DNA of 64,000 bases from Patescibacteria group bacterium (GTDB lineage Bacteria > Patescibacteriota > Minisyncoccia > Minisyncoccales > Staskawiczbacteraceae): NCBI GenBank assembly GCA_038065715.1, contig JBBTQL010000006.1:2127-66126 (forward strand), read 5' to 3'. The notes below the pieces were generated by a model. That model ran no database searches. It saw only the letters and a list, made by a program, of their open reading frames with translations, and had not been told where the DNA came from. The translations under genes were made by a program, and so were the position numbers. This document shows, in pieces, positions 4,524 through 54,675 of the stretch; within the stretch, counting starts at the first letter, position 1, and every line of letters starts with the position of its first letter.

Positions 4524-6722
4524 ATGAAATTAAACATAAAAGAAAAAGACGAAGAAAAACCAGAGAAACCCGACAAAAGCCCTAAAGGGCATTTTGACGG
4601 GCCCGCCACAATCTCGCCGCCTGCCCGCAATGCTGACAGCATAGCTGCTGCAGGCGGGAAGGCGAGTTTGGGCGGGAAGTCTGCGTCCGTTAAAGTTGCA
4701 AAAAAGATAGAAAAAATTGGAGACAAACCCGCCTCCGCTAAAAGCTCTGGCGAGGCGAAGGAAGAACCCGACAAAAGCGTTTCGCGCATTTTGACGGGTG
4801 CGAGCAAAGCTCGCAAAGACGGCGAATATACGGCTAAAGATATTTACGTTTTAAAGGGTTTAGAGCCCGTTCGCAAAAGGCCTGGAATGTATATAGGTTC
4901 TACCAGCATAGACGGGCTTCATCATTTAATTTGGGAAGTTGTAGATAATTGCTTAGATGAAGCAATGGCAGGATACGCCAAAAATATTGAGGTTATTCTT
5001 TTGCCAAACAATAGAGTAAAAATTTCTGATGACGGAAGAGGCATTCCTGTTGAAAAACATGCGGATACAAAAAAATCGGCTTTAGAAACAGTTATGACAA
5101 CTTTGCATGCTGGAGGAAAATTTGGCGGAGACGCGTATAAGGTCTCTGGAGGCTTGCACGGGGTCGGTATCTCTGTAGTATGCGCGCTTTCAACATATAT
5201 GCTCTCTGAGGTGCATCGCGACGGCGGAGTTTATCAGCAGGAATATTTTAGGGGAGAGCCAAAAACATCAGTAAAAAAAGTCGGTGAATCAAAGAAAACA
5301 GGAACCACCCAAACTTTTGACGCAGACCCGCAAATTTTTTCTGAAATAAAATATGATTCAAAAAGAATTTTAACTCATTTACGCCAGCAGGCTTATTTAA
5401 CAAAAGGGGTAAGAATTTCTTTCTTAGACCATAGAGAAAAAGGGAAAGAAGCAAGTTATGATTTTTATTTTGACGGCGGCGTCGGTTCTTATGTCAAATA
5501 TTTAGTTTTAAGCAATACTCCGCGCCATGAAAATGTTTTTTCAACGGCTTCAGAAAAAAATGAAATTTATGTTGAAGCTGCTTTTCAATACACTCAAGAA
5601 ATGGAGTGCACTGAAGAAAGTTTTGCTAATAATATTTATACCCCAGAAGGCGGAACCCATATTTCAGGATTTCGCGCGGCTTTAACAAGATGCTTAAATG
5701 ATTATGCGAGGCGCGAAGGATTTTTAAAAGAAAAAGACGAGAACTTTACAGGAGATGATGTGAGAGAAGGTTTAACTGCAGTAATCTCTGTAAAAATAAG
5801 AACTCCGCAGTTTGAAGGCCAAACAAAAGCGAAATTAGGAAACCCTGAAGCAAAAAATGCAGTAGAAATGGCTTTGTCAGAGGGTTTGTCAGATTATTTA
5901 GAAAGATTTCCTCAAGACGCAAAAGCAATTATTGAAAATTGCCTTTTGGCGACCAAGGCAAGGCTGGCCGCTAAAGCTGCAAGGCAGACAGTTTTAAGGA
6001 AAGGAATTTTAGAGGGCTTAGCATTGCCTGGTAAATTGGCTGATTGCTTGTCAAAAAAACCCGAAGATTCTGAATTATATATAGTTGAGGGAGAGAGCGC
6101 CGGAGGAAGCGCCAAACAAGCAAGGGATAGGGGATTTCAGGCAATTTTGCCTTTGCGAGGAAAAATTTTAAATGTTGAAAGGGCAAGAGTTGATAAAATG
6201 CTGGCGTCAAAAGAAATTAAATCGTTAATTATTGCTTTAGGAACTGCTGTGGCAGAAGATTTTGATATAGAAAAATTAAGATATCACAGAATAGTTATTA
6301 TGACTGATGCTGACGTTGACGGAGCTCATATAAGAACTTTGCTTTTAACTCTTTTTTATAGATATTTTAAGTCCATAATAGAAGCAGGATATATTTATAT
6401 CGCCCAGCCGCCGCTTTATAAAATTCAGGCAGGAAAACGCATAGAATATGCTTATACAGAAGAACAAAAAGACAAAATTGTAAAAGAAATTGGAAAAGCC
6501 ACTGGCATATCCTTGCAAAGATATAAAGGTTTAGGAGAAATGAATTCTGAACAGCTTTGGGAAACAACAATGAATCCTGAAAACAGATTATTATTGCAAG
6601 TAACAATTGAAGACGGCCACGAAGCAGACAAAACTTTGGATATGTTAATGGGTGAAGAAGTCGGGCCAAGAAAAAAATTTATCCAGACGCACGCAAAAAC
6701 AGTTAAAAACTTAGACGTTTAA
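4524..6722 (+). CDS. gyrB: DNA gyrase subunit B with an N-terminal extension of about 100 codons built from GC-rich repeats
   Basis: GHKL ATPase (LEPVRKRPGMYIG, HHLIWEVVDNCLDEA, DDGRGIP). Toprim (YIVEGESAGGSAKQARDR, LPLRGKILNVE). Tail (IMTDADVDGAHIRTLLLTLF, QRYKGLGEM). The start is uncertain: ATG 4524 or in-frame TTG 4791. Confidence 0.95.
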   Translation: MKLNIKEKDEEKPEKPDKSPKGHFDGPATISPPARNADSIAAAGGKASLGGKSASVKVAKKIEKIGDKPASAKSSGEAKEEPDKSVSRILTGASKARKDGEYTAKDIYVLKGLEPVRKRPGMYIGSTSIDGLHHLIWEVVDNCLDEAMAGYAKNIEVILLPNNRVKISDDGRGIPVEKHADTKKSALETVMTTLHAGGKFGGDAYKVSGGLHGVGISVVCALSTYMLSEVHRDGGVYQQEYFRGEPKTSVKKVGESKKTGTTQTFDADPQIFSEIKYDSKRILTHLRQQAYLTKGVRISFLDHREKGKEASYDFYFDGGVGSYVKYLVLSNTPRHENVFSTASEKNEIYVEAAFQYTQEMECTEESFANNIYTPEGGTHISGFRAALTRCLNDYARREGFLKEKDENFTGDDVREGLTAVISVKIRTPQFEGQTKAKLGNPEAKNAVEMALSEGLSDYLERFPQDAKAIIENCLLATKARLAAKAARQTVLRKGILEGLALPGKLADCLSKKPEDSELYIVEGESAGGSAKQARDRGFQAILPLRGKILNVERARVDKMLASKEIKSLIIALGTAVAEDFDIEKLRYHRIVIMTDADVDGAHIRTLLLTLFYRYFKSIIEAGYIYIAQPPLYKIQAGKRIEYAYTEEQKDKIVKEIGKATGISLQRYKGLGEMNSEQLWETTMNPENRLLLQVTIEDGHEADKTLDMLMGEEVGPRKKFIQTHAKTVKNLDV
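4569..4601 (+). repeat. Palindromic element family 1 (CCCGACAAAAGC..GCATTTTGACGGG), copy 1, in frame in gyrB
   Basis: cccgacaaaagccctaaagggcattttgacggg. Same ends as 4767-4798 and the reverse complement of 41005-41036. Confidence 0.85.
4728..4760 (+). repeat. Family 2-like GC-rich element, in frame in gyrB
   Basis: cccgcctccgc...ggcgaggcgaag. Shares GCCTCCGC and GGCGAG.CGAAG with the copies in gatB, rnhB and gatC. Read in the same frame (A-S-A). Confidence 0.6.
4767..4798 (+). repeat. Palindromic element family 1, copy 2, in frame in gyrB
   Basis: cccgacaaaagcgtttcgcgcattttgacggg. Confidence 0.85.
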
Positions 6723-6808
6723 GAAGACTTGACTTATTTTTATGGTTCAGCTACTATAATAAGTAGATGGCCTTCGGGCTGTTTTTTAAAACAATAAAGA
6801 TATATATT

Positions 6809-7003
6809 ATGAATATTGCGCAAAAAATAAAGATATTTTTTAAAGAGGTTTATTTTGAATTGAAAAGAGTAAGCTGGCTGTCGCGTAAAGATGTTTTAAG
6901 ATATACATTAATTGTTTTAGCCCTTACTATTATAGTAGCCTTCTTTTTAGGGGGGCTGGATTTTATTTTTACTGAAATAATAAAGAGATTTGTCCTTAAA
7001 TAA
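6809..7003 (+). CDS. secE: Preprotein translocase subunit SecE
   Basis: Short protein with one C-terminal TM helix (LIVLALTIIVAFFLGGLDFIF). Canonical position directly upstream of nusG. The internal ATG at 6809 is preferred over 6767. Confidence 0.8.
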   Translation: MNIAQKIKIFFKEVYFELKRVSWLSRKDVLRYTLIVLALTIIVAFFLGGLDFIFTEIIKRFVLK

Positions 7004-7008
7004 AAAAT

Positions 7009-7557
7009 ATGCCAAAACAAGTAATAGAACAAGAAAGAGGCTGGTATGTGATTCACACATATTCTGGTTATGAAGATGCAGTTGCAAAAAACCTTAAACA
7101 AAGGATAGAGAGTTTGGGTATGGAAGATAAAATTTTTAATGTTATTGTTCCAAAAGAGAAAAAAATTAAAATTAAAAATGGTAAGAGAAAAACAATTGAA
7201 GAAAAAATTTATCCAGGATATGTGCTGGTTGAAATGATAATTACCGATGCTTCTTGGTATGTGGTTAGAAATACTCCGAGAGTAACAGGATTTTTAGGGG
7301 CAGGAACCACGCCAATCCCAGTTTCAAAAAAAGACATTGACGACCTAATGAAAAGAATGGAAGTTGGCGAACCGGAGTTTAAAATTGATTTTGAAATTGG
7401 AGCTTCAATTAAAATTACAGACGGCCCGTTTAAGGGTTTTGAAGGAAAAGTTTCTGAGATTGACCAGACAAGGGGTAAAATTAAAGTGCTGGTTAATATG
7501 TTTGGAAGAGATACCCCTGTAGAATTAGATTCTTTGCAAATAAAGAAGGTAGATTAA
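7009..7557 (+). CDS. nusG: Transcription termination/antitermination factor NusG
   Basis: NGN domain (WYVIHTYSGYE). KOW motif (ITDGPFKGFEGKVSEID). secE-nusG-rplK order. Confidence 0.95.
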   Translation: MPKQVIEQERGWYVIHTYSGYEDAVAKNLKQRIESLGMEDKIFNVIVPKEKKIKIKNGKRKTIEEKIYPGYVLVEMIITDASWYVVRNTPRVTGFLGAGTTPIPVSKKDIDDLMKRMEVGEPEFKIDFEIGASIKITDGPFKGFEGKVSEIDQTRGKIKVLVNMFGRDTPVELDSLQIKKVD

Positions 7558-7563
7558 ATTAAA

Positions 7564-7635
7564 ATCCGAAGCACGAAATCCGAAATCCGAAACAAATCCA
7601 AATTTTCGAATTTCGAAATTCGAATTTCGAGTTTC
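7564..7635. repeat. Tandem heptamer array (consensus YCGAAWT, about 8-9 units) with partly self-complementary halves
   Basis: tccgaag cacgaaa tccgaaa tccgaaa ... ttcgaat ttcgaaa ttcgaat ttcgag, in the nusG-rplK spacer. TTCGAA is itself palindromic. Confidence 0.7.
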
Positions 7636-7655
7636 TTTTACGGAGTAAAAGTATT

Positions 7656-8078
7656 ATGGCTAAACAAATTAAGGCAATAATAAAAGTGCAGATTCAGGCT
7701 GGCAAAGCAACGCCAGCGCCTCCAGTAGGGCCGGCGTTAGCTCAATACATTAATGTTGCTGAATTTTGCCAAAAATTTAATGCGGCGACACAGGCAATGG
7801 CGGGCTATACGGTTCCAGCAGAGGTAACAATTTATAATGATAGGTCATATATTTTTAAACTTAAAACGCCGTTAGCTTCAGAGTTATTAAAAAAAGCAGC
7901 TGGCGTTGAAAAAGGATCTGGCGCGCCAAATAAAACAAAAGTAGGCAAAGTCACAAAAGCCCAATTAAAAGAAATTGCTGAAAAGAAATTGCAGGACCTA
8001 AACACCACAGATATAGAACAAGCAATGAAAATAATTGCAGGAACAGCAAAAAATATGGGGATAGAAGTAAGAGACTAA
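7656..8078 (+). CDS. rplK: 50S ribosomal protein L11
   Basis: [22 protein letters not shown]-terminal signature. Position after nusG. Confidence 0.95.
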
Positions 8079-15050: not shown

Positions 15051-16565
15051 ATGGCATACAAACCAACAATTGGATTAGAAATACACGCAGAACTAAAAAC
15101 ACAGAGTAAAATGTTTTGCGGCTGTAAAAACGATCCAGATGAAAAACGGCCAAATTTTAATATTTGCCCGGTCTGCACAGCTCAGCCGGGATCTCTGCCT
15201 GTTGCAAACGAAGAAGCAATAAAAAAAGTTATAAAAACTGGGCTTGCTTTAAATTGCGAAATTGCAGAAAATTCAAAATTTGACAGAAAAAACTATTTTT
15301 ATCCAGATTTGCCAAAAGGTTATCAAATTTCACAATATGATCAGCCACTGTGTACTGGCGGATTTTTGGAAATAGAAGGTAATCCTTCGGCAGGCTCAGG
15401 ACGTAGAAAAATAAGAATTACAAGAATACATTTAGAAGAAGATACAGGAAGCTTGATGCATCCGGACGGCACGGATTACTCCCTGGTTAATTTAAACAGG
15501 GCAGGGGTGCCTTTAATGGAGCTGGTTACAGAGCCAGATATTATTTCAGGAAAACAGGCCAGAGAATTTGCAGAAGAACTTCAATTAATTTTAAAATATT
15601 TAGGTGTTTCCGATGCTGATATGGAAAAAGGGTTAATGAGAGTCGAGGTTAATATAAGCGTCAGTGATAATCATAAACTGGGAACTAAAGTTGAAATTAA
15701 AAACTTGAACTCATTTAAAGTTGTTGAAAAAGCCGTTGATTTTGAAATTAAAAGGCAGACAGAGTTATTAGAGGCAGGAGAAAAAATTGTGCAGGAAACA
15801 AGGGGCTGGCACGACAAAAAAGAAATTACTTTTTTACAAAGAGAAAAAGAAGAAGCGCATGATTATAGATATTTTCCTGAACCTGATTTGCCTTCACTGC
15901 ATTTTGATAAAAAATTTATTAATGGAATAAAAGCAACAATACCTGAATTGCCAGAGCAAAAAAGAGAGAGGTTTAAAAAAGAATACGGCTTAAATGAGCC
16001 TTTGATTGAAATTTTTGTTTCCAATAAAGACCTTAGCGAATATTACGAAAAAGTTGTTTCTGAATTTGAGCAGTGGCTTAAAGATGAAGCCGCCTCCGCC
16101 TTCGGTACGCCAAAGGCGACAGAAGCTACGGCGAGTCAAGGAAAAAAAATATTTAAGATGATTGCCAATTATTTAATTTCAGATGTTCAAGGTTTGCTTT
16201 TAGGAAAACAGTTTATTGAAACTGACTTCAGAATTACACCAGAAAATTTTGCAGAATTTATTAAAATGATTTATAAAAACGAAATTTCAAGCAAGGTGGC
16301 AAAAATGGTTTTAGCAGATATGTTTAATACGGGCTCTGACCCTTCAACCATTGTAGATGAAAATAATTTAAGGCAGATGTCAGACAATTCTGAACTTGAG
16401 AAAATTATAGAAGAAGTCATTTCAAAAAATTCAAAAGCTGTTGAAGATTATAAAAAAGGAAAACAAAATGCTCTGCAATTTTTAGCAGGGCATGTGATGG
16501 CTGAAACAAGAGGAACAGCAAATCCAGAAAAAGTTAGGGAACTATTGAACAAGCTACTGAATTAA
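15051..16565 (+). CDS. gatB: Asp/Glu-tRNA(Asn/Gln) amidotransferase subunit B
   Basis: PTIGLEIHAEL, CPVCTAQPGSLP, RIHLEEDTG. C-terminal YqeY-like tail. Confidence 0.95.
   Translation: MAYKPTIGLEIHAELKTQSKMFCGCKNDPDEKRPNFNICPVCTAQPGSLPVANEEAIKKVIKTGLALNCEIAENSKFDRKNYFYPDLPKGYQISQYDQPLCTGGFLEIEGNPSAGSGRRKIRITRIHLEEDTGSLMHPDGTDYSLVNLNRAGVPLMELVTEPDIISGKQAREFAEELQLILKYLGVSDADMEKGLMRVEVNISVSDNHKLGTKVEIKNLNSFKVVEKAVDFEIKRQTELLEAGEKIVQETRGWHDKKEITFLQREKEEAHDYRYFPEPDLPSLHFDKKFINGIKATIPELPEQKRERFKKEYGLNEPLIEIFVSNKDLSEYYEKVVSEFEQWLKDEAASAFGTPKATEATASQGKKIFKMIANYLISDVQGLLLGKQFIETDFRITPENFAEFIKMIYKNEISSKVAKMVLADMFNTGSDPSTIVDENNLRQMSDNSELEKIIEEVISKNSKAVEDYKKGKQNALQFLAGHVMAETRGTANPEKVRELLNKLLN
16086..16140 (+). 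repeat. GC-rich element family 2 (GAAGCCGCCTCCGCC...GGCGAG.CAAG), in frame in gatB
   Basis: gaagccgcctccgccttcgg...ggcgagtcaag, encoding EAASAFGTPKATEATASQG. Confidence 0.75.
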
Positions 16566-17110: not shown

Positions 17111-18089
17111 TAGTCTGCGTAATTTTTTTATAATTATTTAGCCAATTTATTTTTTTGCTTCCCCCGCATCTAACTTGTTCTGGCGCGGGGTGTCTTCTAA
17201 ACCAAGTCATCTGGTGCTTTGCAAAATGCTCTGATTCTATTTGAATTTTATCTATCATTTGTTGATATGTAATTTTATTTTGTCCCGATTTTGTCGAGGA
17301 TCCTCGATTGTTTTGCAATCGGGATAAATATTGCGCGACGAAACGATATTCTAAACCAAATTCTTCAAGGCGTTTCCATGACAAGCCAGCTATATGAAGT
17401 TTTTTAACCTCATTTATCATTGCCTGATTACGTAATCGATTAAGCAATCTTTTACGTATTAATTTTTTTAATTCAATAGGAGATTTTGCAATTCCTATTT
17501 GCAACACAGAAAATTGCGACGTCTGCCGTTGCAATTCTGGCACTGGCTTTTTTGTAGTTAAAACAATTTCTAATGCCCTTATCAATCTGCGGGGGTTTTG
17601 CCTGTCAATTAATTCAGCCCGTTTTGGGTCTAATTTTTTTAATTTTTCAAAAAGTTCTTCGTTGCTCAATTTTTCCAATTTTTTTCGTAATTTCCAGTCG
17701 GGTTTTACTTCAGGGATAATAATTCCATCAACAACAGATTGTATATAAAAACCGGTTCCGCCAACTAAAATAGGCAGTTTGTTTCTTTTTTGAATATCTT
17801 TAATTACTTTCAGCGCTAATTTTTGATATTGAGCCACAGTAAATTTTCTTTTTGGATTTGCCACATTTAAAAGATGATGGGGGATTCCTCGCATTTCTTT
17901 TTTAGTTATCTTTCCAGAGCCGATATCCATTCCTTTATAAATTTGCCTTGAATCAGCCGAAATAATTTCTACGCCCTTAATGCCAAGTTTTTTAAATCGT
18001 TGCCCTTCGGCTATGCTCAGGGCCAATTTGATGGACAAATTGGTCTTTCCAGAAGCGGTGGGCCCCAAAATTACAATAAGTTTATTCAT
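17088..18089 (-). CDS. miaA: tRNA dimethylallyltransferase
   Basis: P-loop GPTASGKT. VGGTGFY. Confidence 0.9.
   Translation of the reverse strand: MNKLIVILGPTASGKTNLSIKLALSIAEGQRFKKLGIKGVEIISADSRQIYKGMDIGSGKITKKEMRGIPHHLLNVANPKRKFTVAQYQKLALKVIKDIQKRNKLPILVGGTGFYIQSVVDGIIIPEVKPDWKLRKKLEKLSNEELFEKLKKLDPKRAELIDRQNPRRLIRALEIVLTTKKPVPELQRQTSQFSVLQIGIAKSPIELKKLIRKRLLNRLRNQAMINEVKKLHIAGLSWKRLEEFGLEYRFVAQYLSRLQNNRGSSTKSGQNKITYQQMIDKIQIESEHFAKHQMTWFRRHPAPEQVRCGGSKKINWLNNYKKITQTIDNFILK
18001..18025. repeat. GC-rich hairpin, in frame in miaA
   Basis: tgcccttcggctatgctcagggcca, encoding part of LALSIAEGQRF. Confidence 0.5.
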
Positions 18090-19381
18090 TTAATTATTTT
18101 TGCTTTTAATGTAAAGGGCGCAACTTCGGTTATTTTTACTTTTACTAATTTTCCTAAAATATTTTTGTTTGATTTCACTTTAATCGTTTTGTATTGTTCG
18201 TTTTTGCCAAACCAGTAATCGCCGCGATTACTGTCTATTAAAACCATTGTTTCTTTTCCAATTAGTTTTTTGTTTTTTTCTAAAGCAGTTTGTTTTAAAA
18301 TTTCTGTTAAAACTTTTTCTCTGCGTTTTTTTTCAACAATTGAAACATCATCTTTTAATTTAGCGGCAGCAGTGCCAGTTCGCGGGGAATATTTGTTTAT
18401 ATAAGCCATATCAAATTTAATTTCACGGAAAAGTTTTGCAGTATTTTCAAATTGTTTTTTTGTTTCTCCAGGGAACCCAACAATTATGTCTGTGGACAAG
18501 GCAATGTTTTTAATTTTTTCTCTTAATTTTTTAATTTTATTTTTATAATCTTTTACAGTATAATGCCGATTCATTGATTTCAAAACTTTATCATCACCAG
18601 CCTGAACGGGCAAGTTTAAGTAGGGCGTCACCTTCTTACAAGTTGCCATCGTTTTTATAGCTTCGTCATTAAAGTCTTTTGGGTGGCTGGAAGTAAACCT
18701 TATCCAAAATTCGCCAGGGATATCATTTACCGTTCTTAATAATTTTGGAAAATTTATGCTGTTATCTTTATAGCTATTAACATTTTGCCCCAAAAGCCAA
18801 ATTTCCTTTGCCCCGCGAAGCCTTGGCGAAGTGGGGTTTGTAATATTTTTTATTTCTTGAATAATGTTTTTGGCTGGCCGCGAAATTTCCCTTTCGCGGG
18901 TGTAGGGGACAACGCAATAGGCGCAAAAATTATTGCAGCCTGTCATTATTGGCACATTAGCTGAAAATTTGTTTGAATATTTTGGAGTTATATCTAAATA
19001 ATCACCCTCGTCATATTTTAAGCGATAGCGTGAAATATGACGAGGGTTGGTTTTTATAATTTTTGGGATTTTTTTTATGTTTTTTATATCCAAAACGCAG
19101 TCAAAACCTTTTATAAAAATATTTTTGTCTTTTTTTAAAACACAGCCGGTTAAAATTGTTTTTAAATTTTTATTATTTTTTCTGATATTTTTAAATTTTT
19201 CAACAAGACCGTGAACGCGGTTTACCGCAGACTGCCTGACAGAGCACATTGCCACAACAACTAAATCTGCCTCTTTAAGATTAGAAGTGTTTTTATATTT
19301 TACAGAATCTAAAATCGTGGCAATTCTTTCAGAATCAGATATATTCATTTGGCATCCATATGTTATAATGTGATATTTCAT
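18086..19381 (-). CDS. miaB: tRNA-2-methylthio-N6-dimethylallyladenosine synthase
   Basis: N-terminal YGCQMN. Radical SAM GCNNFCAYCVVPYTRERE. C-terminal TRAM-like domain. Confidence 0.9.
   Translation of the reverse strand: MKYHIITYGCQMNISDSERIATILDSVKYKNTSNLKEADLVVVAMCSVRQSAVNRVHGLVEKFKNIRKNNKNLKTILTGCVLKKDKNIFIKGFDCVLDIKNIKKIPKIIKTNPRHISRYRLKYDEGDYLDITPKYSNKFSANVPIMTGCNNFCAYCVVPYTREREISRPAKNIIQEIKNITNPTSPRLRGAKEIWLLGQNVNSYKDNSINFPKLLRTVNDIPGEFWIRFTSSHPKDFNDEAIKTMATCKKVTPYLNLPVQAGDDKVLKSMNRHYTVKDYKNKIKKLREKIKNIALSTDIIVGFPGETKKQFENTAKLFREIKFDMAYINKYSPRTGTAAAKLKDDVSIVEKKRREKVLTEILKQTALEKNKKLIGKETMVLIDSNRGDYWFGKNEQYKTIKVKSNKNILGKLVKVKITEVAPFTLKAKIIK
18811..18836. repeat. GC-rich hairpin, in frame in miaB
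   Basis: ccccgcgaagccttggcgaagtgggg, encoding PTSPRLRGA. Confidence 0.55.
19005..19046 (-). repeat. Palindromic element family 3 (CCCTCGTCA...TGACGAGGG), 42 nt, in frame in miaB
   Basis: ccctcgtcatattttaagcgatagcgtgaaatatgacgaggg, with a 14-bp perfect stem. Inverted orientation relative to the copies at 30617 and 31310. Confidence 0.85.
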
Positions 19382-30585: not shown

Positions 30586-30616
30586 TATTATAAATTCGTC
30601 TTTTTCTACTTTTTTA

Positions 30617-30658
30617 CCCTCGTCATATTTCACGCTATCGCGTGATTTCTGACGAGGG
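30617..30658 (+). repeat. Palindromic element family 3, intergenic copy
   Basis: ccctcgtcatatttcacgctatcgcgtgatttctgacgaggg. The 41 nt at 30618-30658 are identical to 31310-31350. Confidence 0.9.
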
Positions 30659-30679
30659 TTTTATTTTGTGATATAATAA

Positions 30680-31309: not shown

Positions 31310-31350
31310 CCTCGTCATATTTCACGCTATCGCGTGATTTCTGACGAGGG
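31310..31350 (+). repeat. Palindromic element family 3, intergenic copy
   Basis: cctcgtcatatttcacgctatcgcgtgatttctgacgaggg, identical to 30618-30658. Confidence 0.9.
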
Positions 31351-31413
31351 TATGTTGCATATGTTGTTTTATCGTTTTATCGTTTTATTGTTGTCTTATT
31401 ATTATTTTATTTT

Positions 31414-35029: not shown

Positions 35030-37108
35030 GTGACAAAAATAAATTCGTTTTATTTCGTTTTTTTTGGATTAATTTTTTTATTAGTCATTTTTGGTTTACG
35101 AGCGAATATAAATCCATCTATAATTACAGTTTTAGCGCAAAATTCTAGCAGCGGCGGAGGTGTATGTCAAACTGATAGTAATTGCGCATACCCAAACGTT
35201 TGTATTGCAAATATTTGCCAGCCCCCGAGCAGCAGTAGCAGTGGTTCCAGTGGCGGGACAACATGCAACGCTATTGACCCCGGCGCGAATTGCACGCCCG
35301 ATTTGCCTATCAGTGTAAATTTTTGTATGACCACTAAATCTATTGGAGAGCGGCTAAACACAGCATCTTGTATTGATAATGAATGTTTAAAGGGGACTAC
35401 TGTAACAAAGATTTCAGATTGTCCGCTTCCGGAGTTGATAGAAAAATATTGTGGGCCTAATAATACTATTAAGGAAAGGAAAAGAGTTTGGTATTGCCGG
35501 GAAAATCAGCCGGTGGGTTCGGGCGTTGTTGGACCGGCATGCGTGCCAGGAACTCAAAATAGCACAGTAGGCAACTGCGGTCCATGCCGGCCAGGAGCCG
35601 CGCGGTGCGCAGGTAGTCCGCCTCAATCAAGCATAGAAGTTCAAATGAATTGTCCTGTTTGCAAGGTCACGGGGTTAAATGCGGCGTGCGTTGATAACCC
35701 TGCTGGCTGGGTAAAAGTTACAGATTGTCCTTTTCAACAAGATATAATTTTGCCTCCAATGGGTTGTACAAATGGTGTTGAATGCAGTGTTGTGATACGT
35801 TTTTCTGGTGAATGCTTTGAGGTTTTCGGCGTTCCTGGTTGTAAAAGTCCTGAAGTTGGTGTTGTTTGTACTCCCTGCGAAGGCGGCGGCGGCGGCAGTT
35901 CAAGCTCAAGTTCCAGTTCCAGTTCAAGTTCCAGTAGTAGCAGTTCTAGCTCAAGTTCAAGCGGCGGCGGTCCTTGCATTGAAGGTAGTCATTCTGAATG
36001 TATAGGCAATCAATGTGTTTGCGTAAATGGTACCGGAATTAGCGCCTGTTTTTATGCTGGTTCTTATTGTTCAGGGTCTGGCAGTAGTTCAAGCAGTTCT
36101 AGTTCAAGTTCCAGCTCCAGCTCCAGCTCCAGTTCAAGCTCTAGCTCCAATGGCGGCGGTATCGTTTGCATATTAAATGGCAAAGGAGTGCCTAATGGAA
36201 CTACTAAATCTTGTTTTTGCGGCGGCGTTACCCCTTGCGTTAATGGCGTGTGGGCTCCTTGTTCGGGTTCTCATTCTTCTTGTGATGGCGGCCAATGTAA
36301 ATGTGTTTCTGGTCCAGGTAATGACCTCTGCGCAAATAATAATATTTGTACAGAAAATGATTATCCGTATGCAGATAATCTACAGGCTTTTACAGGCAGT
36401 TATTGCACGGGAATTCCGGGCACTGAAATGGCTATTTTTAGATGGAATTACGAGCACACGGCTAACATAGGAGAGATAAAATTTCAGTTTCAAGTAGACG
36501 ACAATTCTAATTTTTTATCGCCTGAAGTTGACAGAGTTTATGATAATCTTAATTATCGGGCAGGAGACTTAAATGAGCAAATGGTGCTTGTGCAAATAGA
36601 TCCTTCGCTTCATTATTGCGATGTTAATAATTTATCTAATCCGTATCCTAATAACCAATGCGACCACATTAATTTTAATACTGGCTATTATTGGCGGGTA
36701 AAAGTGTGGGCAAAAGATTATACTCCTTCTGAATGGAAAAATGCTGAGCAAATATTTACATACGGGTATGCCCATGCTTGTCCAAATCCCGACTATTATT
36801 TTAATCCAGATCCTCCGCTTATAAACAATTTAACTACTCTTGTAGATACTTCTACTTGTTATACCTCTACTGGATCTTATCCTTGCAACACGAGCCCAAT
36901 TGTTTCGTATACTTGGGATTGCGCAGACGGTTCTGCTAAAAAATATACCAAAGGAAATATCTCCTGTACTTATACTACTCAATGTTCTCATTATTCTAAC
37001 TTAAAAGTTTGTGATGAAACAGGAGGCTGCGGTTATGTTTCTAAAAACGTTTTTATTTCTCCTTGTTCAAATAATTTACCAGGCAATAAAGAAATTTCTC
37101 CATTTTAA
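35030..37108 (+). CDS. Secreted cysteine-rich protein with two poly-serine linkers and a C-terminal PKD-like domain
   Basis: GTG start. N-terminal TM/signal. Many Cys-rich modules. Two runs of 22 Ser flanked by Gly. C-terminal YTWDCADGS...CTYT...YSNLKVCDETGGCG (PKD-like). Confidence 0.7.
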   Translation: MTKINSFYFVFFGLIFLLVIFGLRANINPSIITVLAQNSSSGGGVCQTDSNCAYPNVCIANICQPPSSSSSGSSGGTTCNAIDPGANCTPDLPISVNFCMTTKSIGERLNTASCIDNECLKGTTVTKISDCPLPELIEKYCGPNNTIKERKRVWYCRENQPVGSGVVGPACVPGTQNSTVGNCGPCRPGAARCAGSPPQSSIEVQMNCPVCKVTGLNAACVDNPAGWVKVTDCPFQQDIILPPMGCTNGVECSVVIRFSGECFEVFGVPGCKSPEVGVVCTPCEGGGGGSSSSSSSSSSSSSSSSSSSSSSGGGPCIEGSHSECIGNQCVCVNGTGISACFYAGSYCSGSGSSSSSSSSSSSSSSSSSSSSSSNGGGIVCILNGKGVPNGTTKSCFCGGVTPCVNGVWAPCSGSHSSCDGGQCKCVSGPGNDLCANNNICTENDYPYADNLQAFTGSYCTGIPGTEMAIFRWNYEHTANIGEIKFQFQVDDNSNFLSPEVDRVYDNLNYRAGDLNEQMVLVQIDPSLHYCDVNNLSNPYPNNQCDHINFNTGYYWRVKVWAKDYTPSEWKNAEQIFTYGYAHACPNPDYYFNPDPPLINNLTTLVDTSTCYTSTGSYPCNTSPIVSYTWDCADGSAKKYTKGNISCTYTTQCSHYSNLKVCDETGGCGYVSKNVFISPCSNNLPGNKEISPF
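35897..35962 (+). repeat. Poly-serine coding tract 1 (22 mixed AGY/TCN codons)
   Basis: agttcaagctcaagttccagttccagttcaagttcc... Confidence 0.9.
36083..36148 (+). repeat. Poly-serine coding tract 2 (22 codons)
   Basis: agtagttcaagcagttctagttcaagttccagctccagctcc... Confidence 0.9.
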
Positions 37109-40556: not shown

Positions 40557-41000
40557 ATGGCATCAAGACATTTATCACGTTCAATTGTAATGCAAAGTTT
40601 GTACGAATGGGATTTTTACGGTAAAAAAGATAATGCTTTGAATGGCATAGTTGAAAGAAATTTGGAAGATTTTGGACCTGGGTTGGAGGATAAAAAATTT
40701 GTTTGGGAATTAATTGCCGGAGTTGAAAAGCATTTAAAAGAAATTGATAAAATTATTGAAAAAGCGGCGCCAGAATGGCCAATTTCCCAAATACCAATTA
40801 TTGACAGAAATGTTTTAAGGATTGGGCTTTTTGAGCTTTTATATTCAAACAAAGACGAAGTTCCTCCAAAGGTTGCCATAAACGAAGCAATTGAATTGGC
40901 AAAAACCTTTTCAGGGCCGATTTCAGGAAAATTTATTAACGGAGTTTTAGGCACAGTTTATAAGCAAATATCCGACAGCAGCCCCGAAGGGGCAGCTTGA
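40557..41000 (+). CDS. nusB: Transcription antitermination factor NusB
   Basis: [14 protein letters not shown]...[14 protein letters not shown]...INEAIELAK. The C-terminal codons lie in a GCCCCGAAGGGGC hairpin. Confidence 0.9.
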
Positions 41001-41004
41001 CGGA

Positions 41005-41036
41005 CCCGTCAAAATGCGCGGAGCGCTTTTGTCGGG
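41005..41036 (-). repeat. Palindromic element family 1, copy 3, at the nusB-rnc junction
   Basis: cccgtcaaaatgcgcggagcgcttttgtcggg is the reverse complement of the gyrB copies. It contains the ATG at 41014 listed by the ORF track. Confidence 0.85.
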
Positions 41037-41761: not shown

Positions 41762-42235
41762 ATGCTTACAATTCGTTTATCAAGAAAAGGCAAAAAGAAT
41801 CAGCCATTTTTTAGGGTGGTTGTTATAGATAAAAGAAGATCGACAAAAGGAGGAAGGTCGGTTGAAGATTTGGGTTACGTTAATCCTTTAACTAAAAAAA
41901 TATCTTTAAATAAAGAAAGAATTCAGTATTGGCTAAAAACCGGCGCCCAGCCATCGGACACAATTCACAATTTGCTTGTAAAAGAAAAAGTTATAGACGC
42001 AAAAAAAATTCACGTTTCAAAATTAAGCAAAAAAAAGCAAGCAGAAATACTCGCCCGCAATAATGTAGCAGCTTTAGGCGGGGATAAAGAAAATGCAGCT
42101 AAAGTTCAGGCAGCCGCCTCGTCCGCTGACGAGGCGAGCCTCGCCCCCGAAGGGGCGGGAAGCAATCCAGAAGAAGTCGCGAAAGAAGAGTCAAAACCAA
42201 CAGAGGAAGTCGCAGGGGAAGAAGTTAAAGCATAA
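41762..42235 (+). CDS. rpsP: 30S ribosomal protein S16 with a C-terminal extension
   Basis: MLTIRLSRKGKKNQPFFRVVV. Confidence 0.9.
   Translation: MLTIRLSRKGKKNQPFFRVVVIDKRRSTKGGRSVEDLGYVNPLTKKISLNKERIQYWLKTGAQPSDTIHNLLVKEKVIDAKKIHVSKLSKKKQAEILARNNVAALGGDKENAAKVQAAASSADEASLAPEGAGSNPEEVAKEESKPTEEVAGEEVKA
42113..42160. repeat. GC-rich double hairpin in the rpsP C-terminal extension
   Basis: CCTCGTC cgct GACGAGG and CGCCCC cgaa GGGGCG, encoding AASSADEASLAPEGAG. Confidence 0.7.
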
Positions 42236-43139: not shown

Positions 43140-43167
43140 CCCGCCTTCGCATAAAGCTACGGCGGGG
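43140..43167. repeat. GC-rich hairpin in the 5' leader of the KH-domain gene
   Basis: cccgcc ttcgcataaagctac ggcgggg. Confidence 0.6.
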
Positions 43168-43651: not shown

Positions 43652-44359
43652 ATGAAGTTTGATGTAATTACAATTTTTCCGGAAATTTTTAAGTCCTATT
43701 TGGGCGAGAGTTTAATTGCAAGGGCGCAGAAAAAAAAATTGATAAAAATAAATGTTCATAATTTGCGGAAATGGGGAAAGGGCCCTCATAAACAGGTTGA
43801 TGACAGGCCATTTGGCGGAGGCTTGGGAATGGTTATGCAGGTAGAGCCAATTTATAAAGCTGTAAAAAAAATAAAAAAGCGAGGAAAGACTAAAATAATT
43901 TTGTTTACGCCAAGAGGCAAAAAATTTAACCAAAAACTTGCTTTTCAGTTTTCAAAGTTAGACCAGATAATTTTTATTTGCGGTAGATATGAAGGAGTTG
44001 ACGAAAGAGTGGCAAAAAATATTGCAGACGTTGAGCTATCAATTGGAGATTATGATTTAATGGGAGGGGAGCTTCCGGCAATGGTGGCAATAGAAACAAT
44101 TTCAAGATTAATACCCGGAGTTTTAGGAAAGCCACAATTGTTGGAAGAAAGAGTTACAAAAAAAGGCGGATTTTTAGAATATGCTCAATACACCCGCCCG
44201 GAAATTTTTAATGTTGGTAAATACGAAAAAAGAGGGAGGGCTTGCCCGCCTAAATCTTCTAACAAGAAGTTTTGGCGGGTTCCAAAATTATTGCTTTCTG
44301 GCGACCACAAAAAAATAGAAGAGTGGAAAAAATCCCACTCTAAAGAAATTTTATCTTAA
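43652..44359 (+). CDS. trmD: tRNA (guanine37-N1)-methyltransferase
   Basis: MKFDVITIFPEIF...GRYEGVDERV...GDYDLMGGELPAM...LLSGDHKKIEEW. The ATG at 43652 is preferred over 43634. Confidence 0.9.
   Translation: MKFDVITIFPEIFKSYLGESLIARAQKKKLIKINVHNLRKWGKGPHKQVDDRPFGGGLGMVMQVEPIYKAVKKIKKRGKTKIILFTPRGKKFNQKLAFQFSKLDQIIFICGRYEGVDERVAKNIADVELSIGDYDLMGGELPAMVAIETISRLIPGVLGKPQLLEERVTKKGGFLEYAQYTRPEIFNVGKYEKRGRACPPKSSNKKFWRVPKLLLSGDHKKIEEWKKSHSKEILS
44245..44279. repeat. GC-stemmed hairpin, in frame in trmD
   Basis: cccgcc taaatcttctaacaagaagtttt ggcggg, within an apparent insertion of about 19 aa before VPKLLLSG. Confidence 0.65.
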
Positions 44360-46779: not shown

Positions 46780-47682
46780 ATGTTAGTTGGGCATAGCAAA
46801 CAATGGGAGTTTTTAAAGAAAAAGCTTGAACAAAATCAGCTTTCACATGCTTATTTGTTTTCTGGCCAAAATGGAATAGGCAAAAAAACTTTTGTAATAG
46901 AATTTGTAAAATATATAAATTGCCTTGCCTCGCAGAAGCCCCGCCTTGGCGGGGCGGAGGCGGGTCAAATAAATGCAAAAATACCTTGCCAAAAGTGCGC
47001 AAATTGCCTAATGATAGAAAAAAACAGTTTTCCGGATTTAACGGTTTTATCGCCAAATGGAAAAGATGAGAAATTCGGAGATGGAGGCGAAATAAAAATT
47101 TCCAGAATCAGGGAGGCGCAAAATTTTTTAAGCTATAAATCGTATTACGGCTCTTTTAAATCTGTTATCATTGACTGCGCAGAAAGCATGAATCAAGAGG
47201 CGCAAAGCTGTTTATTAAAAACTTTAGAAGAGCCAAAAGGGAAAACACTGATTTTTTTAATTTCTTCAAGGCCAGAAATAATTCTGCCGACAATTTTTTC
47301 AAGATGCCAGCAAATAAAGTTTTTTTGGGGCAAAAATTTGCCAGAAAATTTAGAAAAAAAAGAAATAGAGAAAGAAATTTTAAACAGCTTGATTCCTGTT
47401 TTAAATTCTAATCTTTCAGAAAAGTTTAAATTTGTAAAATCCATTGATGCAGAAAAGCAAAAAATTGAAGACATTATAAAGGTTGCGCAGAAATATTTAA
47501 GGCATTTATTGCTTGCAAAAATAGGCATAGAGAAATTTGATGTTAAAGACGGAGTTTTTGCAAAGTATTCAATTGGCGATTTAAAAAGAGTATTAAATTT
47601 GGCAGAAGCAATAAACAGAGAATTAACGTTTACCAATGCCAGCCCTAAATTGGCATTGGAAATATTATTAATGGAAACATAA
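46780..47682 (+). CDS. holB: DNA polymerase III subunit delta'
   Basis: HAYLFSGQNGIGKKT. Zinc module C..(insert)..CQKCANC. SRCQ. Confidence 0.8.
   Translation: MLVGHSKQWEFLKKKLEQNQLSHAYLFSGQNGIGKKTFVIEFVKYINCLASQKPRLGGAEAGQINAKIPCQKCANCLMIEKNSFPDLTVLSPNGKDEKFGDGGEIKISRIREAQNFLSYKSYYGSFKSVIIDCAESMNQEAQSCLLKTLEEPKGKTLIFLISSRPEIILPTIFSRCQQIKFFWGKNLPENLEKKEIEKEILNSLIPVLNSNLSEKFKFVKSIDAEKQKIEDIIKVAQKYLRHLLLAKIGIEKFDVKDGVFAKYSIGDLKRVLNLAEAINRELTFTNASPKLALEILLMET
46926..46964. repeat. GC-rich hairpin, in frame in holB
   Basis: gccccgcc ttg gcggggc plus flanks, encoding SQKPRLGGAEAGQ inside the zinc-module loop. Confidence 0.7.
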
Positions 47683-51766: not shown

Positions 51767-51786
51767 AATTTGTATTTTTAAATTTT

Positions 51787-52062
51787 ATGCTTAGCAAAGA
51801 CGAAGTAAAACGTATTGCAAAGTTGGCGCGGTTGGAATTAACTGAAAAGGAAATAGAAAAAATGCAGAAAGATATGTCTGCGATTTTGGATTATTTTGAT
51901 TTGTTAAAAAAAGCCCCGAAGGTAAAAGTTGAAGCCGCCTCCACCAAGGCTTCGGCGAGCCGAAGAGATGAGGTAGTTTCCAGCCACAATATAAGAGATG
52001 AGCTAATTACTGCAGCTCCCTGTAAAAAAGATGATTACATTAAAGTTAAAACAATATTATAA
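51787..52062 (+). CDS. gatC: Asp/Glu-tRNA amidotransferase subunit C
   Basis: [20 protein letters not shown]. Directly upstream of gatA. The ATG at 51787 is preferred over 51763. Confidence 0.85.
51931..51965 (+). repeat. GC-rich element family 2, in frame in gatC
   Basis: gaagccgcctccaccaaggcttcggcgagccgaag, encoding [12 protein letters not shown]. Confidence 0.75.
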
Positions 52063-53510
52063 TGGATTTAACAGAGTTAGCAATTAAAGAAGCGCACGAA
52101 GGATTAAAAAAGGGAGAATTTACTTCTGTTGATTTAACAAAAGCATATTTAGATAAAATTAAAAAAAATAATAAAAAAGTAAACGCTTATTTATCTGTGA
52201 CCGAAAATTTGGCGTTGGAAATGGCAGAGGAAGCGGATAGAAAAATAAAATCAGGAACTTTAGAAATGTTAACAGGAATTCCTTGTGCCATAAAAGACGC
52301 AATTTTAGTTGAGGGGGAAAAATGCACAGCTGGTTCAAAAATTTTAGAGAATTATATTGCTCCTTACGACGCAACAGTTATTAAAAAATTAAAGGAGCAG
52401 GGAGCTGTTATTTTAGGAAAAACAAATTTAGATGAGTTTGCAATGGGTTCGTCTACTGAAAATTCGGCATTCAGCGCGACAAAAAATCCGCACGATAAAA
52501 CAAGAGTTGCCGGCGGAAGTTCTGGCGGATCGGCGGCCGCGGTTGCGGCAAATATGGCGGTTTTCGCTTTGGGCTCTGACACTGGAGGTTCAATAAGACA
52601 GCCGGCATCCTTTTGCGGGGTTGTTGGATTATGCCCAACATATGGAGCAGTTTCCCGTTATGGTTTAATTGCCCATGCATCTTCTTTAGACCAAATTGGG
52701 CCTCTTGCTAAGAATGTTGAAGATTGTAAAATTGTTTTTGATGCAATTAAAGGCAAAGATCCGCTTGACGCAACAAGCGTTGAGTTGGGAATACAGAATA
52801 CAGAATTTAAAATTAAGAATTTACGCATTGGGGTTCCAAAAGAATATTTTGCGAAGGGATTGGAAAAAGAAGTAGAAGAAATAATCAGAGAAGCGATAAA
52901 AAAAGCAAAGGACGCAGGCGCTGAAATTATTGAAATAAGTTTACCGAGCTCAGAATACGCCTTGGCTTGTTATTATATAATTGGTCCGTCTGAAATATCA
53001 GCTAATTTGGCAAGATTTGATGGAATAAAATACGGGTTGTCCGAACCAGCGGAAAATCTCTTGGATGTATATTTAAAAACAAGAGGGAGGGGATTTGGAG
53101 TTGAAGTAAAAAGAAGAATTATGTTGGGAACATATAGTTTGTCTTCTGGGTATTATGACGCTTATTATCAAAAAGCCCAGGAAGTTAGAGAATTGATAAA
53201 GCAGGATTTTAAAGAGGTATTTGTCCCGCCAGGAGCGGGATCCCGCAGTGGCGGGAAAAAAGTTGATTTATTATTTTGCCCCGTTTCACCATTTCCGGCA
53301 TTTAAAATAGGCGAAAAAACAGATGATCCAATGTCTATGTATTTAGCTGATATTTATACTATTCCTTTAAAATTAGCAGGATTGCCCGGAATTTCTGTTC
53401 CTGTTGGAAAAATTAAAAGCCTGCCAGTTGGTTTGCAGATAATTGGAAATCATTTTGAAGAAGATAAAATTTTTAGTATAGCATCGCAAATAGAAAATAT
53501 GGTAAAATAA
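52062..53510 (+). CDS. gatA: Glutamyl-tRNA(Gln) amidotransferase subunit A
   Basis: Amidase signature [13 protein letters not shown]...[12 protein letters not shown]. Confidence 0.95.
53224..53256. repeat. 33-nt GC-rich nested palindrome, in frame in gatA
   Basis: tcccgcc aggagcggga tcccgcagt ggcggga, encoding [10 protein letters not shown]. Confidence 0.8.
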
Positions 53511-53514
53511 AATA

Positions 53515-54057: not shown

Positions 54058-54166
54058 TTTATCTATAAAGGCCTGTTCCCACAGACCAAAGAATGGTGCT
54101 TAATCCCACCAGGCTTATTAATGTAATCCAAACTATTTTAAAAATTGTTTTTGATTTCATATTATA

Positions 54167-54586
54167 ATGGTAGCAAATTTTAAGAAAAAACAAAAGAACA
54201 GATATTCGGCAAACATTGTTTTTTTTGTTTTCGCCGCGAGCTTGATGCTAACAATAATTCTTTTATTAGTGTTTAAAGATATTGGAATATATAAGAAAAA
54301 AGAAAAACTAAATTCTGAATTTGATAATATAAAAAAACAGATCCAGGAAACAATTAAAAAAAACCAAGAATTAAAACAGGGCATAAGCCAGTCAAATAGT
54401 ATAGATTATTTAGAAAAAGTTGCCAGAGAGCAGTTGAACCTTCAAAAACAGGGAGAAAAAGTTGTGTCCTTCATATTGCCCCAGCAACAGCCAAAAAATG
54501 AAGATAAGCAGCAAAATTTTATGGATATAAAAATTTTTACAGGCTGGTTTAGCAGCGGTTGGGATTGGATAAAAAGCAGATTTTAA
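54167..54586 (+). CDS. Septum formation initiator (FtsB/DivIC-like)
   Basis: N-terminal TM helix, coiled coil, and IDYLEKVAREQLNLQKQGEKVV. Confidence 0.7.
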   Translation: MVANFKKKQKNRYSANIVFFVFAASLMLTIILLLVFKDIGIYKKKEKLNSEFDNIKKQIQETIKKNQELKQGISQSNSIDYLEKVAREQLNLQKQGEKVVSFILPQQQPKNEDKQQNFMDIKIFTGWFSSGWDWIKSRF

Positions 54587-54591
54587 TTTAT

Positions 54592-54626
54592 GCGGGATTA
54601 GTATAGTGGCAGTACATAACCTTCCC
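54592..54626 (+). pseudogene. Orphan 5' half of a tRNA-Gly(CCC)-like gene, broken in the anticodon loop
   Basis: GCGGGAT TA GTAT AGTGGCA GTAC A TAACC TTCCC gives acceptor strand, D-arm, 5' anticodon stem and loop up to CCC. No matching GGTTA, T-arm or ATCCCGC occurs downstream. Confidence 0.45.
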
Positions 54627-54675
54627 CCGCCCCGAAAGGGCGAGGCTCGCCCCGCCGCGGCGGGGCGGCAAGGCA
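54624..54675. repeat. GC-rich hairpin cluster abutting the tRNA half
   Basis: ccccgcccc gaaa gggcgagg, plus the 20-nt perfect palindrome cgccccgccgcggcggggcg (54648-54667). Confidence 0.8.

Follow-up and report, generated by a model that had tools for sequence, protein, structure and literature searches.

The 64 kb stretch of DNA analysed here (the window) belongs to an ultra-small groundwater bacterium of the Patescibacteria, or candidate phyla radiation (CPR), and carries short GC-rich palindromic modules that lie in frame within many of its conserved genes. Judged by codon-level alignment with orthologues, the segments in gatA, proS, thrS (two), dnaE, rnhB, gatB, miaA (three), miaB, trmD and holB are in-frame, lineage-specific insertions of 12–42 nt; the evidence for insertion is weaker and less clean in rpsP, gatC and the N-terminal tail of gyrB. 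Similar modules recur in unrelated genes and in other species, in both orientations and in different frames, and they are probably selfish elements comparable to the repetitive extragenic palindromic (REP) sequences and the Rickettsia palindromic elements (RPE).

The window and the sequences compared

The window has 35.6 % GC, is about 88.5 % coding and 11.5 % non-coding, and starts near the replication origin, with dnaA, dnaN and then gyrB in a region of positive GC skew. Its sequence matches a contig on record that was obtained from Hainich groundwater (well H43, 0.1-µm filtrate), and the closest named relatives of its proteins are from Candidatus Staskawiczbacteria and other Patescibacteria. 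The GatA protein recurs unchanged on 6 contigs of separate assemblies, so the elements are not an artefact.

The comparison set comprised 80 loci that carry a GatA orthologue, taken from species genomes, and 80 with a threonyl-tRNA synthetase (ThrRS) orthologue, taken from metagenomes (up to 82 % identity); these related patescibacterial loci or species are denoted by L-numbers. Orthologues of 13 genes (up to 85 per gene), with open reading frames (ORFs) delimited from stop to stop, were extracted, aligned and inspected at the codon level, and all window ORFs were scanned pairwise against their three best relatives. The nearest relatives show 71–86 % protein identity and no closer strain was found. 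Homologues of trmD came from a separate protein search, as synteny had brought no rpsP or trmD orthologues within the GatA loci.

Palindromic insertions in conserved genes

The first-pass annotation had drawn attention to GC-rich hairpin blocks within conserved genes. When a GC-rich block is defined as a 30-nt sliding window of at least 70 % GC, these windows coincide with the blocks it listed, and every block folds as a hairpin; its description of them as very rich in GC holds for most, but miaB 19005-19046, trmD and thrS 26071-26101 reach only 45–55 %. There are 15 GC-rich perfect stems of 8 bp or more where first-order Markov simulations give 1.6 ± 1.2, about a nine-fold excess, and the arm sequences CCCGCC and GGCGGG occur 26 and 29 times, where 4.4 and 7.9 copies respectively are expected from a first-order Markov model of the window. 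Hairpins taken irrespective of composition show no excess in the window (108 against 98). About 18 of about 26 element loci lie inside ORFs, and the density per kb is roughly three-fold higher in non-coding DNA. Two further GC-rich blocks, at 7706-7741 and 29098-29130, were ruled out as elements, being conserved coding sequence.

The in-gene elements are as follows; F1 is a repeat family described below, fold z-scores derive from mononucleotide shuffles, and element edges are ambiguous by a few bases.

4566-4800, forward strand: gyrB N-terminal tail; cluster of at least four hairpin modules, about 78 aa added if ATG 4524 is the start
15381-15407, forward strand: gatB; insert NPSAGSGR, 8 aa, 58–62 % GC, lineage-specific, not in L090 or L086
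16086-16140, forward strand: gatB; F1 element with nested inner hairpin, EAASAFGTPKATEATASQG, net gain 12 aa
17160-17192, reverse strand: miaA; hairpin insert HPAPEQVRCGG, 11 aa, stem CCCCGC/GCGGGG, fold z −2.6
17283-17324, reverse strand: miaA; hairpin insert SRLQNNRGSSTKSG, 14 aa, arms TCCCGATT...AATCGGGA, inner TCGAGGATCCTCGA
17970-18025, reverse strand: miaA; insert of 12 aa, missing in 14 of 19 orthologues
18811-18836, reverse strand: miaB; hairpin insert PTSPRLR, about 7 aa, missing in 15 of 16 orthologues
19004-19047, reverse strand: miaB; 45-nt hairpin repeat, in frame, NPRHISRYRLKYDEG, 15-bp perfect stem
24692-24733, reverse strand: thrS; multi-hairpin insert of 42 nt, 74 % GC, EGLARSAAPERAMA, in the ThrRS anticodon-binding domain
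26071-26101, reverse strand: thrS; 12-bp perfect palindrome ATTCCCGCGAAT...ATTCGCGGGAAT, net gain 7 aa
27732-27747, reverse strand: dnaE; perfect palindrome of 16 nt, TCCGCCAGCTGGCGGA, encoding NPPAGG, net gain 4 aa
31540-31647, forward strand: rnhB; AT-rich long hairpin of 108 nt, 30 % GC, in frame, fold z −5.9
31858-31902, forward strand: rnhB; F1 element with nested CCGCCATGGCGG, net gain 13 aa, missing in nearest relatives
42113-42160, forward strand: rpsP; C-terminal extension of S16 with three GC-rich hairpin modules
44231-44279, forward strand: trmD; hairpin insert RGRACPPKSSNKKFW, outer stem CCCGCC/GGCGGG, the ancestral W-R-V codons forming the 3′ arm
46926-46968, forward strand: holB; F1 element, reversed, with nested hairpin, LASQKPRLGGAEAG, in a Cys...Cys loop
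49469-49508, forward strand: proS; hairpin of 39–40 nt, PARSGFAAGDAGG, near the N-terminus of prolyl-tRNA synthetase (ProRS)
51931-51965, forward strand: gatC; un-nested F1 copy with a 1-nt internal difference
53224-53256, forward strand: gatA; double hairpin of 33 nt, TCCCGCCAGGAGCGGGATCCCGCAGTGGCGGGA, between the G and AA of a GAA codon

The names given to these genes in the first-pass annotation are upheld by NCBIfam for gyrB, gatB, miaA, miaB, thrS, dnaE, rnhB, rpsP, trmD and holB, and by Pfam gene calls for proS, gatC and gatA, and no host ORF is interrupted by a block, as it had stated. The inserts at miaA 17283-17324 and 17160-17192, gatB 15381-15407 and rnhB 31540-31647 are additional to its list.

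The gatA element is missing in all 80 orthologues, where the empty site reads TTT GAA AAA; in the window this has become TTT G, followed by the 33 nt and then AA AAA. The thrS insert at 24692-24733 is missing in 40 of 40 aligned orthologues with identities of up to 82 %, the proS element in 41 of 43 informative orthologues, and the dnaE palindrome in five relatives of 82–86 % identity. The gatB element at 16086-16140, which has GATGAAGCCGCCTCCGCC in common with the rnhB element, is missing in L090 (78 % identity) and L086 (76 %); the other gatB insert, at 15381-15407, forms a hairpin only weakly (fold z −0.7). In miaA, the insert at 17160-17192 is missing in L090 and L132 and that at 17283-17324, with a perfect 8-bp stem and a fold z of −4.4, in L090, L132 and L101, while inserts related to that at 17970-18025 occupy the same site in L132/L129 and L106. 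The segments are thus absent from the nearest relatives and are not ancestral parts of the proteins, a possibility that the first-pass annotation had itself raised. The gains in length that it had estimated agree with the alignments: 11 aa for the 33 nt in gatA, 13 aa in rnhB, about 13 aa within the Cys...Cys loop of holB and, in trmD, about 19 aa relative to Staphylococcus aureus TrmD (14 aa relative to L104, the one close orthologue). The trmD insert is found in about half of the close homologues.

At several sites the position is occupied differently in other species. The miaB site at 18811-18836 holds in L104 a CCCC...GGGG hairpin with an AT-rich interior. The 3′ arm of the thrS palindrome at 26071-26101 overlaps codons that the orthologues have, and the same codon position carries an F1-type insert in L087 and a perfect palindrome of 2 × 20 nt in L086. 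The AT-rich hairpin of rnhB at 31540-31647 is variable or missing among homologues. We note that long AT-rich palindromes follow the AAAV motif of RNase HII with a sequence that differs by lineage (IPMTNK...GHWTLGF in some, EIRNSKQIQNS...SDFDIRIS in others), and that three such variable sites give RNase HII homologues lengths of 200–307 aa.

Two terminal blocks are less straightforward. The gyrB cluster, which the first-pass annotation had placed inside the gene, belongs to it if ATG 4524 is the start, and then forms an N-terminal tail; this start is plausible in view of the similarity of MKLNIKEKDEEKPEK to the Lys-rich orthologue tails. The tail has 105 residues in the window, against 20–40 in orthologues, and the cluster is made up of an E-type module (4567-4601), a large hairpin (4602-4676), an F1 copy (4726-4762) and a second E-type module (4765-4799). 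The rpsP block does consist of hairpins as described, but insertion is not demonstrable there, as it forms a variable C-terminal extension with few orthologues; 27 nt of it match positions 16647-16673 of L153 at 96 %, and it has GGCGAGSCTCGCC in common with a segment at 54639.

Repeat families within and between species

The elements fall into sequence families. Thirteen non-self matches with E-values of 10−3 or better arise from 8 of the 22 elements, against none in 20 composition-preserving shuffled sets, and the other possibility raised by the first-pass annotation, that the hairpins have no family structure, is not borne out. Copy numbers per family, which are 2–5, refer to these 64 kb of the genome only.

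The F1 family is 36 nt long (consensus ATGAAGCCGCCTCCGCCAAAGGCTTCGGCGAGCCAAGGCAA) and has five copies in the window, in the gyrB tail, gatB, rnhB, gatC and, reversed, holB; outside the window it occurs at the rnhB site of four species (L165–L168) and in thrS of L087. The rnhB copy and the complement of the holB copy are 91 % identical over 35 nt and have about 45 nt and a nested inner hairpin in common. Their orientations are opposite, the two genes lie on the same strand, and the encoded peptides are unrelated. In gatC a one-base internal difference shifts the frame of the second half, so that the peptide differs again; as the first-pass annotation had remarked, there is no net gain in length at this hypervariable segment, yet the DNA is recognisably an F1 copy.

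The E-type family has three copies, two in the gyrB tail and one at 41004-41036, with 94 % identity over 33 nt. The 45-nt hairpin is present in the window at 19004-19047 (miaB, in frame), 30616-30660 and 31310-31351, and L085 contains three copies, one of which lies in frame in rnhB and is read in the same frame as the miaB copy. Two window copies of GGCGAGSCTCGCC were found. The proS element resembles an insert in the Zn-loop of L036 holB (87 % over 39 nt), where it is read in a different frame, and the gatA double hairpin resembles the proS insert of L005, an element of the same type. The dnaE element lies in a 21-mer, TTGTCCGCCAGCTGGCGGATT, that is identical in L153 and L098, with a core of 16–18 nt in L078, L027 and L028, and the palindrome encodes NPPAGG both in the window DnaE and in three unrelated ORFs. 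The miaA segment 18001-18025 is a copy of a widespread family of the form CCCTTCGRC-nnn-GCTCAGGGC, encoding LALSIAEGQ; it matches an insert in L007 gatA (24/24 nt, 96 %), and the family is also present in gatA of L007, L008 and L013, with L006 gatA and L008 proS 96 % identical over 25 nt. A peptide encoded by a double hairpin, KSRHRRGLSMPTKSSILDKVGT, is found in the L058 GatA insert (aa 257–280) and twice in an RNase HII (P0093), and represents another family common to different species.

Since copies stand in both orientations and are read in different frames, the common unit is DNA and not peptide, and on these comparisons the elements are DNA repeats rather than convergent peptides. No match to the exact F1 core or the dnaE 21-mer was found in 2.9 million viral contigs, and on this basis phage carriage was rejected.

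Anatomy of the elements and their insertion sites

The modules are 15–60 nt long and occur singly, nested or in clusters. An inner hairpin is nested in the middle of F1 in rnhB, holB and gatB, and L166 has a nested hairpin at the 3′ side; clusters lie at 4566-4800, 42113-42160 and 54619-54683 and in the 127-nt inverted repeats 56980-57106 / 60847-60973. No flanking direct repeat accompanies 21 of the 25 elements, and none is consistent, so that target-site duplication (TSD) was not found. The tags of REP sequences are not enriched in these 25 elements (GTAG 0, CTAC 2, CGTC 5, GACG 6, all at or below the shuffle expectation), and only one occurrence, a GACG, is near an element terminus. The trinucleotide TTG abuts 7 of 50 element ends where 1.24 are expected (P=2×10−4, with boundaries set by the author); under an objective definition of hairpins the figures are 7 of 116 ends against 2.9 (P=0.03). 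The abutting TTG pre-exists in the empty sites of gatA and L005 proS.

Pairing is retained as the sequences diverge. Compensatory double changes are present in 2 of 9 pairs of the F1 core, and the hairpin of the TrmD insert is retained in five species, with one compensatory change from T-A to C-G and an inner stem that differs in three of the five; in a sixth species, L173, this site carries a 13-bp hairpin of unrelated sequence. Motifs known to be extra-stable were seen in several element loops, namely C(TTCG)G in rnhB and gatC, CTTG in holB, GCGAAGC in L005 proS and miaB, and GAAA in the mRNA strand of thrS and at 54630-54640.

Structure prediction places the inserts in low-confidence loops of the proteins, a check that the first-pass annotation had proposed. 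Both RNase HII inserts have predicted local distance difference test (pLDDT) values below 57 in an otherwise confident AlphaFold fold (about 48 for 31858-31902), and the TrmD insert is a coil with pLDDT below 50 in a weaker AlphaFold model.

Insertions of this kind extend beyond the window. Lineage-specific inserts of 4 aa or more number 166 in 10 genes from up to 160 loci, and 30 % of them have a fold z below −2, against 7.6 % of 314 same-length controls (Mann–Whitney P=9×10−9); for inserts of 7–16 aa the proportions are 32–50 % and 1–4 % respectively. The inserts exceed their own gene in GC fraction by 0.10 on average, and the window genome is the richest in them, with 15 in the 10 genes.

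Relationship to known repeat systems

RPE are palindromic families found in frame in Rickettsia genes, according to the accounts of Ogata et al. (2000, 2002) as represented in PMC10969869 and PMC3733652. Like these, the present elements form palindromic families in frame in housekeeping genes that are unrelated to one another, within a small AT-rich genome; their translation is presumed, they fit the protein fold and they have no identified transposase. The likeness proposed in the first-pass annotation therefore stands in the manner of working, but the elements are not RPE: the modules are 15–60 nt long, nearer in size to REP palindromes, whereas RPE-1 types are about 100–150 bp, and the host is a member of the Patescibacteria and not Rickettsia. 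Unlike RPE, with which we compare them by description only, they have no conserved encoded peptide, the product varying with orientation and frame, and they form nested modules and families that extend across species whose GatA proteins are only about 60–70 % identical.

Intragenic REPs, many of which lie in genes of replication and repair, have been reported in Opitutus terrae, Thauera and Rickettsia (Di Nocera et al., 2013, PMC3733652; reviewed in PMC10969869). In common with REPs and bacterial interspersed mosaic elements (BIMEs), the window elements are imperfect palindromes of 20–40 bp in multi-copy families (five of F1, three of the E type, three of the 45-nt hairpin and two of GGCGAGSCTCGCC) and form clusters of modules; some REPs also lie wholly in ORFs and encode amino acids, and there too target-site duplication is lacking. 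They differ in having no GTAG/CGTC tag at the end, TTG being enriched instead, and in being mostly intragenic by absolute number, whereas REPs are mainly extragenic. REPs are mobilized by REP-associated tyrosine transposases (RAYTs, of the Y1/HUH type), and no repeat-flanked RAYT gene was found in the window or in L161/L162. Miniature inverted-repeat transposable elements have terminal inverted repeats and TSDs and are 70–300 bp long, unlike the present elements, 21 of 25 of which are without a TSD and which span 15–75 nt.

Some mitochondrial repeats are also comparable. The GC clusters of yeast mitochondria (PMC4478555) are mobile GC-rich palindromic modules of 30–50 nt in a compact, very AT-rich genome and occasionally lie in coding regions. 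The present elements, likened to GC clusters by description only, are bacterial and not organellar, and GC clusters are mostly intergenic. Double-hairpin elements occur in Allomyces mitochondria, and the gatA element of the window is likewise a double hairpin. The coding palindromes of Nematomorpha mitochondria (PMC6649704) are inverted repeats in frame in conserved genes, although these are long (up to 284 bp) and perfect, with both arms coding, and are not dispersed short families.

Full-text literature searches returned no report of such elements in CPR/Patescibacteria, and a perspective on the Patescibacteria (PMC11665869) mentions only rRNA insertions and introns. The statement in the first-pass annotation that no equivalent description exists accordingly holds for this phylum but not more widely, since in-frame palindromic repeats are already known in Rickettsia and, as intragenic REPs, in Opitutus terrae and Thauera (PMC3733652).

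Origin of the elements

The explanation that we favour, and consider probable, is that these are selfish REP/RPE-like palindromic modules that spread by copying and persist where selection on frame, stop codons and loop tolerance permits. Short GC-rich palindromic modules (about 15–60 nt) would be copied to many places in this genome and its relatives, and the copies to survive would be those whose net length is a multiple of three, which contain no stop codon and which fall in a tolerant protein loop or tail. Because the window is 88.5 % coding, most opportunities for insertion lie inside genes; and because stop codons are absent from 93 of the 108 frames of 18 elements, a copy can be read in either orientation, as a loop rich in Ala, Gly, Pro, Arg and Ser. 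Modules would also land within earlier modules, giving nested hairpins, and build up in clusters. As to how they might move, the best guess, though a doubtful one, is a single-strand DNA transposase that recognizes hairpins (HUH/Y1, RAYT-like) and works in trans beside a short TTG; the lack of duplications, the ends formed by hairpins and the TTG that adjoins them are reminiscent of single-strand transposition of the IS200/IS605 and RAYT types.

Several observations weigh against this explanation. No transposase of a hairpin-recognizing type, and no Y1/HUH or DDE enzyme, was detected in the 64 kb by Pfam searches of 20 window ORFs, the hits being limited to one large serine recombinase and a small protein with a GIY-YIG domain. 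Related loci totalling 2.1 Mb were searched by tblastn with sequences of IS608 TnpA and E. coli RAYT, and two IS200-like, RAYT-like Y1_Tnp ORFs (PF01797 above threshold; 214–227 aa) are present, at 11025-11705 of L161 and 3891-4532 of L162; these adjoin thrS and are 40 % identical to each other, but no hairpins surround them, and we treat them as a lead to the mechanism and not as evidence. The REP tags GTAG and CGTC show no enrichment, the copy numbers per family are small, and recent mobility is suggested only by comparisons between species. Furthermore, different hairpins occupy the same codon position across species (thrS site 2, i.e. 26071-26101, a proS site, miaB, miaA, trmD and rnhB), which can mean either permissive loops or local generation; one arm coincides with ancestral codons both in trmD and at thrS site 2, which a local inverted duplication fits better than transposition; and the retained pairing and the GC-rich codons in an AT-rich genome could indicate that the hairpins are functional instead.

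Local generation is the most substantial of the alternatives, although we regard it as rather unlikely as a general account. Template-switch (inverted-duplication) mutations at fragile sites would create hairpins de novo without any mobile element, and the recurrence of different hairpins at identical codons would then, with the same slight likelihood, mark mutational hot spots. In its favour, invariant codons (W-R-V) supply the trmD 3′ arm, TGGCGGG, and the reverse complement of the adjacent AAGAAGTTTTGGCGGG nearly matches the insert over its 5′ half; the 3′ arm at thrS site 2 aligns with ancestral S-G-K-F codons, and target-site duplication is absent. By the criterion that an arm be the reverse complement of the flank, trmD and thrS 26071-26101 fit, but the inserts in gatA, thrS 24692-24733 and L005 proS have no arm in the empty site and do not, and template switching does not account for near-identical sequences of 21–45 nt in unrelated genes, in both orientations and several frames, within and between species. 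That the hairpins are instead functional nucleic-acid structures under selection (mRNA stabilizers, pause sites or protein-binding palindromes), with the peptides a tolerated by-product, seems less likely still. Compensatory changes keep the pairing in F1 and the TrmD insert, GC-rich codons are kept in a 35 % GC genome, and the elements are more conserved between species than their host genes; yet their presence in essential genes is patchy even among the closest relatives, they stand in either orientation and also between genes, sense and antisense RNA folds do not differ significantly (22 against 14, P=0.24), and Rfam has no match at the elements, finding only two tRNAs and LOOT RNA in the window.

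Two further explanations are much weaker. Selection acting on the proteins to favour flexible loops rich in Ala/Gly/Pro, with GC content and hairpins as side effects of codon composition, would suit the location of A/G/P/R/S-rich peptides in loops and the recurrence of NPPAGG and EAAS/EAAF in the same frame; it is very improbable given that the fold z-scores come from shuffles that keep composition, that the same DNA yields different peptides (rnhB and holB, proS and L036 holB, and gatC) and that copies exist between genes. The byps of Magnusiomyces mitochondria are GC-rich hairpins in AT-rich genes, and the window blocks resemble them in size and composition. It is nevertheless scarcely credible that the blocks are removed or bypassed without translation, whether like introns or like byps derived from yeast mitochondrial GC clusters: unlike those, all in-gene copies (more than 15) are in frame and free of stops, which would have a chance of about (1/3)^15 if they were not read, and older inserts carry conserved peptide patterns (EAAFAKGYGxPK in RNase HII, ACPPKSSxKKFW in TrmD). 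From this strict conservation of frame we infer that the inserts are translated.

Beyond selfish REP/RPE-like modules as such, we suggest only tentatively that the elements represent a new phylum-wide class of ultra-short modular palindromes, shared across species, nesting, keeping their pairing, inserting without duplication beside TTG and remodelling the surface loops of essential proteins; those of aminoacyl-tRNA synthetases, DNA polymerase III, amidotransferase and tRNA-modifying enzymes might be so remodelled, on the same tentative footing. Patescibacteria have tiny genomes with little intergenic DNA and conserved proteins full of unexplained insertions. If many of these insertions derive from short selfish palindromes, part of the sequence divergence that hampers alignment and phylogenetic placement would be explained, selfish DNA would be seen to persist in streamlined genomes, hidden in protein loops, there would be a concrete annotation rule for spotting such inserts, and essential enzymes would offer dozens of sites at which insertion is tolerated in nature. 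A phylum-wide class, if real, would be a main source of the many unexplained insertions in the proteins of these reduced genomes, and the identity of modules across species bears on DNA exchange among co-occurring ultra-small bacteria.

Intergenic copies and neighbouring features

Related hairpins also lie between genes. Those that the first-pass annotation had reported at or near 43140-43167, 54619-54683 and 63368-63466 do fold as hairpins, and the intergenic copies comprise the following, none of which is assigned to a strand.

30616-30660: copy of the 45-nt hairpin family, upstream of a PaaX_M-like ORF
31310-31351: second intergenic copy of the 45-nt hairpin, downstream of the same PaaX_M-like ORF
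40978-41036: hairpins in a short gap between ORFs, including the third E-type copy (41004-41036, reversed)
43140-43167: CCCGCC...GGCGGG hairpin just upstream of a KH-domain ORF
54619-54683: three GC-rich hairpin modules, 75 % GC, which fold into stems
63368-63466: GC-rich stem of 13 bp (ACCCCGCCCTCTA...) around an AT-rich interior of 73 nt

The ORF with the PaaX_M (Cas2-like) domain is flanked on both sides by the 45-nt hairpin in the window and also in L085, where the flanking hairpins are at 4894-4917 and 5546-5584 and the protein is 79 % identical to that of the window. The position of this ORF between copies of a dispersed hairpin resembles the layout of RAYT/REP systems.

The segment 32180-37108 encodes ORFs of 700 aa and 692 aa with a GC fraction of 0.40–0.44 and runs of GGC repeats near 35866-35907. 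Neither ORF has a significant Pfam domain (the 692-aa ORF has a sub-threshold match to PKD_4), and no orthologues of them were found in the fetched loci.

Directly after the hairpin cluster at 54619-54683 is a stand-alone ORF of 85 aa with a GIY-YIG nuclease domain (54703-54960), which precedes a tRNA-Gly/recombinase region. This region, 54978-61122, has a GC fraction of about 0.40, lies between tRNA-Gly(ccc) (54987-55059) and tRNA-Thr(cgt) (61039-61112), and has the appearance of an integrated element, an invertible cassette or both. The large serine recombinase (Resolvase, Recombinase and Zn_ribbon_recom domains) is encoded there within 94-nt inverted repeats (55088-55181 / 56803-56896), and the 127-nt repeats, which are perfect, enclose a 224-aa ORF and the gene for a protein of 877 aa that has peptidoglycan-binding and Ig-like repeat domains. 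The LOOT RNA (RF03000) is located at 60648-60770.

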